Below, one piece after another: positions 16,530 to 41,366 of a stretch of 64,000 nucleotides of DNA. The first letter of the stretch is position 1. Each line of letters starts with the position of its first letter. The position numbers were made by a program, and so were the translations under genes. The stretch lies in NCBI GenBank assembly GCA_951406725.2, contig OX597819.1, positions 88,164,001 to 88,228,000 on the forward strand, in the 5' to 3' direction. The notes under the pieces were generated by a model. That model was not told the origin of the DNA and did no database searches. It worked only from the letters and a program-made list of their open reading frames with translations. Origin of the DNA: Octopus vulgaris (lineage: Eukaryota).

Positions 16530-16532
<3 letters not shown>
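16215..16532 (+). mobile_element. RTE-related 3' UTR/SINE-like repeat with ~60 bp internal tandem units and a (GAT)n tail
   Basis: Three AAAAAGCACC-started units, then TAGGAAGGGCATCC and CCCATGCTAGCATGG; related to 3100-3190 and 3825-3870. Confidence 0.7.
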
Positions 16533-16573
<41 letters not shown>

Positions 16574-16584
16574 TATATAGAAGG

Positions 16585-16635
16585 AGCTTCTACAGGACTA
16601 GAACTGTTTCATTCAAGAGAAATCTTCAGGAAGCT
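16585..16635 (-). ncRNA. Type I hammerhead ribozyme motif (inverted copy)
   Basis: Exact reverse complement of 19344-19394. Confidence 0.75.
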
Positions 16636-17214
16636 AGTTAACAAGAATTGTATTGGCATTTATACATTTAGGCAGGTTTAAAGGGGTGTTGGTGGGGGAC
16701 TTTTTGGGGGTAGGCATAGCGCAAAATATCATACTTGGGGGAGTGGTCAAGGAGTCAGTGTTAAATTAGATAGAAGAATAAATAAAAAATAAAAAAAATA
16801 AAAATATATATATATAAAAAAAGGGGGAATAGAGTTTTAGGTAAATAAGGAGATTCTCACTTATACCTATGCACATATGTATACATATATACACACGCAT
16901 ACAAACATATATACATATACATACACACATACATACACACACATATATATATACATATATATACACTTACACATACATATACATATCTACACATACACAT
17001 ATATGTATACATACACACACTCACATGCATACACGTATACACACATGTATATATACACACACACGACCACACATACATTGTACATGTGTATGTATATATG
17101 TGTGTAAGTGTGTGTATATATGTAAATGTAAGTGTGTGTGCTTGTATGAGAATGTATGTATGTTTGCACACATGTATATATGTGTGTGTATGTGTATGTG
17201 TATATATATATATG

Positions 17215-17248
<34 letters not shown>

Positions 17249-17546
17249 TATTTGTATATATATGTGTATGTATATATATGTGTATGTGTGTGTGTGTGTA
17301 TACATGTGTGTATGTGTATGTATGTATGTATATATATGCGTGTGTATGTGTATGTGTATATGTACATATACGCGTACGCTCGTGTGTTTATGTATATGTA
17401 GGTACGTAGAGTATCTATGTGTTGTATTTATATGTACATGTGTAAGTATGTATATATATATATATATATATATGTGTGTATGTGTGTGTGTGTATATATA
17501 TATATATGTATGTATGTGTGTATGTGTATATATATGTGTATATATG

Positions 17547-17585
<39 letters not shown>

Positions 17586-18000
17586 ATCTATGTGTGTGTA
17601 AGTTTATATGTATGTATCCGTCTATATAATAGGTAACTGCACGTACATATACTTAATATTTATTATTTATTATTTATTTTTTGAGTATGCATGTATGAAT
17701 AACTGCGCGTATATATATTTTACTATTTACTTATTTTTTGAGTATGCATGTAAGTATGAATATAAGGAGGCGCGTGTGTGTGTGTGTATGTGTAAGCATA
17801 GATATATGTATACTTTTACGCATGGGTGTACTTATGTGTATATATGGACGCGCGCGTGTGTGTGTGTGTGTATGGGTACGCATGTACATGTGTATGTGCG
17901 TGTATGAGTATATGAGTATGTATGTATGTGTGTGCGTATATTTGTATATGTATGTATGTATGTATATGTATGTGTGTGTATGAATATATATGTATATATG

Positions 18001-18033
<33 letters not shown>

Positions 18034-18230
18034 AGATATATATATGCGCGTATATATATGTATGTATGTGGGTGTGTGTATGTGTATAAATGTATGTATG
18101 TATGGATGTATGGATGTATGTATGTATGTATACGTATGTATGTGTATGTGTGTATATGTATGTATGTGTATGTGTGTATATATGTGTATGTGTGTGTGTA
18201 TATGTGTATGTATATATGTGTATATATATG

Positions 18231-18287
<57 letters not shown>

Positions 18288-18699
18288 TTGTATGTAGGTG
18301 TACGTGTATGTGTGTGTATTTATATTTATTGGTGTATATGTATAGACTAGCCTTCTAAGAGTGTAGACATGAATCTGTAGGTACGCGTACGTATGTGTAT
18401 ATACGTGAATGTATGTAGATGTATGTATGTATGAATATAACGCGTGCGTGCGTGTATGTGTATGAGTGTACGAATGAGTGAGTGTACGTGCTAAAGAGTG
18501 TGCGTGAGTGAATGAGTGCTTGTTTTCCAGTAGACAGATAAATGGACTGGCTGTCATAGCCAAGATGTTTGTGACCAAGCGGCCAAAGATAAACAAAGTA
18601 ATAAACGAAGATAATAAAATTAAAATTAGGGAATGGGTCTGTATTTGTATGTGTATATATATATGTGTGTATGTGTAGGTATGCATAGGTACACATATG

Positions 18700-18736
<37 letters not shown>

Positions 18737-19343
18737 ATATATATATATGTGTATGTGTATGTATGTGTGTGTATATATGTGTGTATGTGTATATATGTGT
18801 ATATAGGGACTAGTGTGCTGTGTGTGCATGTGTGTGTGTGGATTTGTGTGTGTATGCGTGTATGTGAGTATGTGTGTGTATGTGTATATATATTTTTCTG
18901 TGTGTATATGTATGTGTGGTCGTGTGTGTGTATATATACATGTGTGTATACGTGTATGCATGTGAGTGTGTGTATGTATACATATATGTGTATGTGTAGA
19001 TATGTATATGTATGTGTAAGTGTATATATATGTATATATATATGTGTGTGTATGTATGTGTGTATGTATATGTATATATGTTTGTATGCGTGTGTATATA
19101 TGTATACATATGTGCATAGGTATAAGTGAGAATCTCCTTATTTACCTAAAACTCTATTCCCCCTTTTTTTATATATATATATATTTTTATTTTTTATTTA
19201 TTCTTCTATCTAATTTAACACTGACTCCTTGACCACTCCCCCAAGTATGATATTTTGCGCTATGCCTACCCCCAAAAAGTCCCCCACCAACACCCCTTTA
19301 AACCTGCCTAAATGTATAAATGCCAATACAATTCTTGTTAACT

Positions 19344-19394
19344 AGCTTCCTGAAGATTTCTCTTGAATGAAACAGTTCTAGTCCTGTAGAAGCT
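19344..19394 (+). ncRNA. Type I hammerhead ribozyme motif
   Basis: Stem I AGCUUC/GAAGCU; core CUGAAGA; stem II UUC-UCUU-GAA closed by U.U; GAAA; stem III ACAG/CUGU; cleavage triplet GUA, predicted cut after 19388. Confidence 0.75.
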
Positions 19395-19477
19395 CCTTCT
19401 ATATAATAAATTAATTTTACTCTGCTATGTATTGAGTACCTTATTTACTGTGGTTAACCCCGAATCAACCCGGGACC

Positions 19478-19515
<38 letters not shown>

Positions 19516-36029: not shown

Positions 36030-36520
36030 TGAATTTAATAGGTCTAAAATAATTATCACTCTCCACAAACCACATATGAAAAACAGATTAATATTTCTGC
36101 TAACAGCACAGAAAATATTAATGTCTATGAATCTCCTTAATTGTGTAATTTTAGAAATAATAAGTTATGCCCCACTAAAAATAGTACCTATAGATGCGAT
36201 GTCCGAACTAATCTAACCACATTTACCTATATCGGTTCAACAGCGCGATTTAAGGAAATATTATATAATCATCATCATACTTTCAATAAACGTGATACAG
36301 CTAAAGTGACGCCGCTCGCGGAAAAAATTTGGGAACTAAAAGATAAAAAAAATAAATTCAAATTACCTGAATTATAATCAAACAAACATTAACCTGTTCT
36401 AACGATAGGTATGGATGTGGAATTTGCTGGACTGAGTTATGGAACATGTTAGAATGTTCAGGTAACGTCCTTAATAAATTCAGTGAACATAGGGTAAAAC
36501 GGTCGCACTACATTAGAAAA
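36030..36520 (+). pseudogene. Penelope-like element GIY-YIG endonuclease remnant
   Basis: CNFRNNKLCP..TYRCDV..TYIGSTARFKEILYNHHHTF..LAEKIWELKD, then after a frameshift IIKQ..CGICWTE..VLNKFSE, the PLE endonuclease signature. Confidence 0.8.
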
Positions 36521-41128: not shown

Positions 41129-41194
<66 letters not shown>

Positions 41195-41203
<9 letters not shown>

Positions 41204-41257
41204 GAAGGAGCTTCTACAGGACTAGAACTGTGAGAAATCTTCAGGAAGCTAGTTAAC
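41195..41257 (-). mobile_element. Short solo remnant of the hammerhead-bearing terminal repeat
   Basis: Matches 16571-16642 except for a 9 nt deletion (TTCATTCAA) through the GAAA core; flanked by (TA)n. Confidence 0.8.
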
Positions 41258-41269
41258 TAGTGTAATATA

Positions 41270-41366
<97 letters not shown>

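Follow-up and report, generated by a model that had tools for sequence, protein, structure and literature searches.

A young Penelope-like element of Octopus vulgaris: a truncated head-to-head insertion and the recurrent end points of its copies

The window (the whole 64,000-nucleotide stretch of Octopus vulgaris DNA that was analysed, positions 88164001-88228000 of sequence C6 in the 2.80-Gb assembly searched for family copies) contains a 2.9-kb insertion in a (TA)n repeat, which can be read at 16532-16567 on the left flank and at 19481-19514 on the right. The main arm of the insertion occupies 17079-19479 on the plus strand. At a head-to-head junction (17078-17079, defined by comparison with family copies) it meets an inverted arm on the minus strand (16568-17078), which is the reverse complement of 18908-19411 and may represent a second cDNA whose priming site lies 68 nt upstream of that used for the main arm. 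The arms are near-identical, as an earlier note made from the letters alone had claimed: an inverted-repeat comparison found the outer halves (16568-16795 and 19184-19411; 228 nt) to be 100% complementary and the inner halves (16781-17078 and 18908-19205; 298 nt) 98% complementary, and when 16568-17078 was aligned with 18908-19411 they differed solely by a single 7-nt indel and a single substitution, which lie in a T-rich tract. The right arm outreaches the left by 68 nt and ends at 19479 (the note had put this at about 70 nt), and (TA)n adjoins both insertion ends, as also described there. Target-site duplications are unreadable within (TA)n.

Positions 17079-19130 of the main arm are plus-strand TG/TA simple sequence, a portion of the 2.5-3.8 kb stretch that lies between the ORF stop and the hammerhead in full copies. 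The interior reading frames without stops consist of simple sequence only, and a tblastn comparison of the family's own protein with 16569-19479 gave zero matches, which upholds the note's view that no real ORF lies inside. Tandem units of 150-450 nt are absent at the window copy. The plus-strand sequence towards the right end carries TATAAAT (19315-19321), a predicted core promoter 29 nt upstream of A19344; A19344 itself, the putative RNA 5' end (cap site) and the first base of hammerhead stem I, which lies 180-182 nt 5' of the ATG in full copies; a type I hammerhead-like motif (19344-19394) with a predicted cut after A19388 and a self-complementary loop III; and AATAAAT (19405-19411), the end point of tail-less arms and putative priming site 2. 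The 68-nt tail follows (19412-19479), which in full copies runs on into the 5' UTR and ORF, and then CATAT (19480-19484), element-encoded but merging with the target repeat, which is putative priming site 1. The inverted arm carries an identical hammerhead-like motif at 16585-16635 on the minus strand, as seen by alignment.

The insertion derives from an autonomous Penelope-like element (PLE), whose 3' end it carries in 5'-truncated, head-to-head form; only because of this truncation is the window copy non-coding. Positions 17079-19479 are colinear with the last 2.4 kb of an ORF-bearing unit, matching locus L098 at 94%, most of the differences being gaps of repeat length. A search with the last 280 nt of the element returned 996 candidates, and 40 of the 40 scored were 100% identical, the window copy included; a unique island within the spacer (18340-18650) gave 1,389 genome candidates, with 40/40 scored at 99-100%. 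Exact patterns identified 2,459 tail ends and 1,378 tail-less ends genome-wide, the two being 68 nt apart and in (TA)n (reversed controls, 0), and all 30 fetched loci end on the identical base before passing into (TA)n. In longer copies the TG/TA body reaches up to about 4 kb, with the C-terminus of an ORF upstream of it. The complete unit has been defined as hammerhead, 68-nt tail, short 5' UTR, ORF, TG/TA spacer of 2.5-3.8 kb (72% A+T and 7.5% C in L096) and hammerhead, with a hammerhead-to-hammerhead length of 4.8-6.1 kb. Partial tandems of the pLTR type are found at L093/L094, L098 and L268-269. The points of truncation and inversion vary from copy to copy, and therefore the inverted structure is re-made at each insertion. 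The family copies thus support the relationship to PLEs, the youth and the origin of the inverted truncated arm by integration that the note had proposed, and its cryptic TA/TG body proved to be common to many copies. The note had also suggested that a genome search might link the element to an RT/GIY-YIG ORF, and such an ORF does lie directly upstream in longer copies; the same finding refutes its classification of the family as non-autonomous or retrozyme-like.

The ORF encodes a 713-aa protein with a reverse transcriptase (RT) plus, at the C-terminus, a GIY-YIG endonuclease (EN), and it is unbroken in two copies, L093 and one at C18:62342509; among the 65 matches listed, 2 span residues 1-713 without a break. 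The protein model has a pLDDT of 82, and its best fold match is to TERT (3du5, E 2.6e-08). Pfam searches with the 713-aa protein returned no RT or GIY-YIG match and sequence searches of the PDB likewise nothing relevant; in the aligned relatives Pfam detected RVT_1 in 1/14 and GIY-YIG in 1/14, in two different relatives. At E 1e-20 there are 1,116 relatives, the best 120 of which share 37-52% identity. Near aa 493 (e.g. in L096, L098 and L147) a run of C shifts the frame in 35 of 55 rows, which come from overlapping loci, whereas no deletion is listed at this place in contigs from four public runs; this break is probably a homopolymer error of the assembly, and intact ORFs may therefore be undercounted. 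Two main subfamilies, similarly abundant on C1, differ in loop III, in the tail and immediately upstream of the start, and recombinants between them make up 2/63 long tail-bearing arms. Other Hydra-like elements were also encountered: window positions 36144-36490 hold a C-terminal endonuclease fragment of one, with 37-44% identity to the family protein, and L047:4258-8919 holds another (ORFs of 636 and 189 aa, on the opposite strand) nested in the family's TG/TA spacer, which seems to act as a target.

On motif grounds, the family is an EN+ PLE with the motifs of the Hydra clade, a placement by motifs and not by a tree with named Hydra sequences; the characters used were those of section 11 of PMC8557442, and agreement with the supplementary alignment of that paper was judged by eye. 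As in EN+ PLEs, a single ORF combines a telomerase-like RT with GIY-YIG, and copies show partial tandems (pLTRs), an inverted 5'-truncated copy and a tail at one end. As described for the C-terminal EN+ PLEs of the Hydra clade (PMC8557442), the ORF is of ~710 aa, the GIY-YIG domain is C-terminal, LDKTK has DKT in place of DKG, the linker, read by eye, contains CNCPDKTTC (CxCX5C), and E and N, likewise by eye, are flanked by CxxC and CxH (CDLC..E..N..CMH); CCHH is absent from the EN, with one C only within the GIY-YIG core (by eye). Insertion into (TA)n, seen at 30/30 loci, a hammerhead-like motif near the end, an inverted 5'-truncated arm, a tail and partial tandems are further likenesses to that clade (PMC8557442), and truncated inverted insertions of coding PLEs are described there as common. 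The differences are that the unit measures 4.8-6.1 kb as against the usual, descriptive length of <3 kb, because of the 2.5-3.8 kb of TG/TA sequence, that the tail has 68 nt as against 30-40, and that RWR stands in place of RWK (PMC8557442); RWR is found in the family protein and two relatives, and RWK in the remaining 11 of 14 rows. With its long spacer of simple sequence and its 68-nt tail, the family is a variant within the Hydra clade. Identity with Hydra-1_Obim was ruled out, as that element is 2,507 bp long with another N-terminus and hammerhead, compared by eye (PMC8557442), and so was assignment to Naiad/Chlamys, since the EN motifs are C-terminal and not N-terminal.

At the motif the sequence can be arranged as a type I hammerhead, with stem I formed by 19344-49/19389-94, the core elements CUGAAGA (19350-56) and GAAA (19369-72) and a GUA site after 19388, a stem II of 3 bp closed by a U-U mismatch and a stem III of 3 bp. 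The claim of a complete hammerhead in each arm stands in that the fold is drawable and the arms are identical there; it falls short in that Rfam, over the entire 64-kb window, returned no hammerhead match at the gathering score, and in that the unconstrained minimum free energy (MFE) fold differs from the hammerhead and is no better than shuffles (z 0.19), with -5.7 kcal/mol for the drawn fold vs -8.5 for the MFE. The check with the Rfam hammerhead models that the note had recommended was thus negative, and among the 150 loose matches listed of 154 there was no hammerhead family, the loose matches being to simple-repeat microRNA models. A 30-mer spanning the core has 3,536 exact occurrences in the genome (reversed control, 0), which shows that the motif is not due to chance. 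Among the family copies scanned, motif variants recur in loops II and III and at core position 7, and no compensatory stem changes were seen, the family being too young for covariation. Loop III is self-complementary, with a duplex energy of -9.4 kcal/mol, or -11.8 in the second subfamily; type I motifs with a palindromic loop III are likewise reported for retrozymes and PLEs (PMC4209133, PMC7229834), and PMC4209133 describes dimeric forms and opposite-strand pairs for the latter. Main-arm starts at the predicted cut (19386-19392) number 0/70 sampled tail ends; genome-wide, 29 raw ends fall at the cleavage site, compared with 13 for a control site (p 0.02), and because 16 of the 29 are accounted for by a short inverted arm, which leaves 13 vs 13, there is no clear footprint of a cleaved linear RNA. 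At L148 (C15:44664127-44664278) tandem 125-nt units have their junction on the predicted hammerhead cut and are joined to the 5' UTR; this junction is the only hint, at the level of sequence, of cleavage in vivo. A descriptor scan also found unrelated type I hammerhead-like motifs in flanking DNA, at least at L013:65, L023:2241 and L212:1323.

Copies of the family share two fixed ends. In full copies the tail is followed by CATAT and then by unique UTR, and in insertions the same bases pass into (TA)n; tail-less ends halt at AATAAAT and then pass into (TA)n, and AATAAA thus coincides with the second fixed end. Tail-less ends also occur alone (window 41192-41270, L167 and L176). The solo mini copy at 41192-41270, on the minus strand in (TA)n, lacks the GAAA core as well as part of stem II through deletion. 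The two fixed ends may be read as two priming sites, at 19480-84 and 19405-11. Two tail-bounding RT start sites, with extension of both strands, have been demonstrated in vitro for PAc, a PLE of another clade (the Poseidon clade, from Anolis; PMC11167929), which further resembles this family, as interpreted here, in that the start sites are near the RNA 5' end, both strands are cut (in vitro for PAc) and the target is AT-rich. The start sites of PAc lie 111-118 nt inside the ORF and are without target homology, whereas those proposed here are located in the 5' UTR and have a few AT-rich bases in common with (TA)n; priming of PAc in vitro needed no target homology, which counts against base-pairing at the priming sites (PMC11167929).

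Copying also appears to stop at a preferred base. In the first 70 exact tail ends on C1, selected by the exact pattern alone, 30 main arms start at 19344-19356 (20 of them at 19344), none at 19329-19343 and 2 at 19216-19339, whilst 28 extend past 19215 and 10 start further 3'. At 50 junctions genome-wide where AGCTTCC follows an A/T-only flank, the base preceding it is G in 34, T in 7, A in 6 and C in 3; the excess of G over C has p 1e-7, 3 of the 34 G rows could derive their G from a short inverted arm, and the element itself has T there. Contigs from a public run include one joint to 19344 with a G between and 22 that are loose at 19344, and contigs with loose ends at 19344 were seen in three more public runs; the runs listed consisted of contigs throughout, with none recorded as RNA. 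The cap itself is the cause of the added G at capped RNA ends. In CAGE, reverse transcription adds an extra G at capped 5' ends (PMC5110153). The stop pile-up, the extra G and the TATA at -29 together suggest that the element RNA starts at A19344, capped and TATA-driven. The extra G could instead reflect terminal-transferase activity, and the palindromic AGCT at 19344-47 makes microhomology joints possible and may let the aligner stretch starts by up to 4 nt. In the literature searched, which lay mostly outside subscription papers, Repbase and Dfam, neither a cap G nor run-off products nor paired arm classes were reported for PLEs. What is new here is the stop/start footprint in copies, the insertion architecture being already published.

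The lengths of the two arms are coupled. An inverted partner was seen for 54 of the 70 sampled ends (33 short-short, 17 long-long and 4 mixed; p 4e-10) and none was found for 16; the pairing is unchanged after two doubtful rows are dropped. The subfamily marker is concordant in 26/26 scorable long pairs, 17 of which come from loci picked on their identity to subfamily A or because they extend as far as the ORF, and discordant in the short pair L181; arm differences are 8.7 within insertions vs 11.2 between them, a modest gap in a noisy window. Among copies that contain the beginning of the ORF and come to the hammerhead again, 16/18 clearly pass 19344, compared with 30/60 (p 0.005, or 0.009 with related copies collapsed); of the remaining two, L149 stops, and L272 probably goes beyond 19344 as well, with about 13 nt that belong to an older variant. 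This count leaves out L144, L150 and L266, which stop 3' of the hammerhead, and the short jump products L143, L145, L146 and L148. Two of these four products stop at the start site on the second passage, and the RT is therefore able to jump to internal sites of linear RNA. On a linear RNA with priming at the far end, copying would be expected to halt at the cap, yet 16/18 pass; independent jumps would be expected to mix long and short arms, yet 50/54 pairs are matched. Neither model fits. The favoured guess for the template of long copies, at a little under an even chance, is a unit-length circle produced by the predicted hammerhead cleavage of two successive repeats and ligation. Repeated end-to-end template jumps are a weaker candidate, doubtful on balance, and a committed RNP making an end-to-end jump on every occasion also fits the matched arms; a multimeric or read-through RNA, for which the one true dimer (L268-269) is a possible source, is somewhat more doubtful again.

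Given the family, its ORF and target, the two fixed ends, the pile-up at 19344 with its extra G and the arm-length pairing, all of which the data show, it is probable that the locus records one insertion of a young autonomous PLE, with two 5'-truncated 3'-end copies placed head to head in (TA)n, likely as both target ends were primed on one RNA at two sites 68 nt apart. The GIY-YIG domain would cut both strands of (TA)n, and each target 3' end would pair with a short AT-rich site (19480-84 or 19405-11) on a TATA-driven, capped transcript from A19344. On a linear RNA the cDNAs would run off after 136 or 68 nt and yield palindromes of ~200 nt, and long insertions like the window copy would derive from a template that is endless at 19344. 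A wider reading takes in the whole PLE cycle: a capped RNA from the hammerhead start, two RT subunits priming both (TA)n ends, linear run-off, a 5-6 kb circle formed by cleavage and ligation, an RT rolling past the start and an upstream promoter rebuilt. This we offer tentatively, as a scheme that is rather more apt to fail than to hold.

An unlikely alternative to double priming is that the tail-primed cDNA loops and copies itself, the second arm ending at 19411 by annealing to the target and later central deletions making the arms unequal. Such a fold-back accounts for the short-short and long-long pairing and the subfamily concordance, near-perfect palindromes do exist (L041, L049 and L052), L049 bears a nested insertion in both arms, and self-priming has been put forward for PLE palindromes (PMC3846280). 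It is at odds with the solitary tail-less ends, with a tail-less arm that exceeds the tail arm in L051, L056 and L059, with L243, where both arms reach 19344 and each has an extra base, and with the two start sites demonstrated in vitro for PAc (PMC11167929). L049 itself (C2:181519500-181529499) is a 6.7-kb palindrome with a nested mini copy at mirror positions in both arms, which implies that both arms copied one template that already held the mini copy. Equally unlikely is that the pile-up at 19344 marks a structural or microhomology hotspot (stem I or the AGCT palindrome), with the RNA starting further upstream and long copies requiring no special template: AGCT is self-complementary and several junctions read GGAAGCTTCC, but the extra G occurs at junctions to plain A/T flanks, TATA lies at -29, a 6-nt palindrome at 19337-42 gathers no stops, and a structural stop would be expected on the second passage too, yet 16/18 pass.

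That the family is a non-autonomous, non-coding PLE derivative or a retrozyme, with the inverted structure as its master copy, is highly improbable. The window copy does code for nothing, and C8:91.475-91.483 Mb does hold a retrozyme-like array of 271-nt units that belong to this family; ORF-bearing copies, however, have the same 3' region joined to the ORF, the truncation and inversion points differ among copies, and the window copy has no tandem 150-450-nt units. An animal non-LTR retrozyme was likewise rejected, as the window copy is not tandem and is part of a coding family; the C8 derivative alone fits. Even less probable is an assembly artefact with a misplaced or chimeric left arm, for although homopolymer-like assembly errors occur in the family, an indel distinguishes the arms, their ends lie at two distinct conserved sites, 54/70 sampled ends have inverted partners and an inverting joint is also present in the contigs of another run.

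Priming of both target ends on one RNA, the preferred reading, can be set beside other elements. A multi-copy mRNA is assumed for PAc and cap run-off products are unreported in the available text of PMC11167929, where hammerhead mutants left in vitro insertion unaffected in an assay that scored short products. Penelope of Drosophila virilis (PMC2377424) and of A. vaga (PMC3846280) share the pLTRs, inverted 5' copy, tail and palindromic junctions, and a putative TATA box was noted in one A. vaga pLTR (PMC3846280). The D. virilis promoter is internal and TATA-less (PMC2377424), in contrast to the predicted TATA upstream of the start in this family, which means that every copy would depend on its own 3' region being restored upstream. 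Head-to-head repeats are explained by an antisense template in PMC3846280, whereas the extra G points to one that is sense and capped. Retrozymes, which circularise through RtcB and are thought to be derived from PLE ends (PMC7229834; bioRxiv 10.64898/2026.07.22.740005), are tandem arrays of short non-coding units (PMC7229834), unlike the window element, a single truncated insertion of a coding family; circles have been demonstrated for retrozymes, and the accessible text of these sources reports none for full-length PLE RNA (PMC7229834; bioRxiv 10.64898/2026.07.22.740005).

The family has given rise to one array of its own. At C8:91475358-91483400 (L141, L142) lie 31 units, each 271 nt long and comprising the TATA, hammerhead, tail, 5' UTR and 45 nt of the ORF, of which 5 are inverted and 26 forward; the array has the two putative priming sites as its limits in (TA)n and contains a block of variants with a period of 10, one variant having the same rank in both arms and another not. 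It is a retrozyme-like derivative that arose in or after one insertion.

The locus is ordinary in itself and useful as a mechanistic record. How the tandem and head-to-head repeats of PLEs are made, and what their hammerhead does, are stated to be open in PMC8557442, PMC11167929 and PMC3846280, and this family, which is very young and has an intact ORF and near-identical ends in the thousands, allows predictions that are exact to the base (an RNA start at A19344, priming at 19411 and 19480-84, and a unit-length circle). If the reading of the whole cycle were true, one mechanism would account for the pLTR, the head-to-head inversion and the tail, and also for what the PLE hammerhead does. The microsatellite-like kilobases are the 3' body of a retrotransposon, and low-complexity masking would therefore hide the family, which may in turn carry TG/TA sequence, and with it fresh targets, across the genome.
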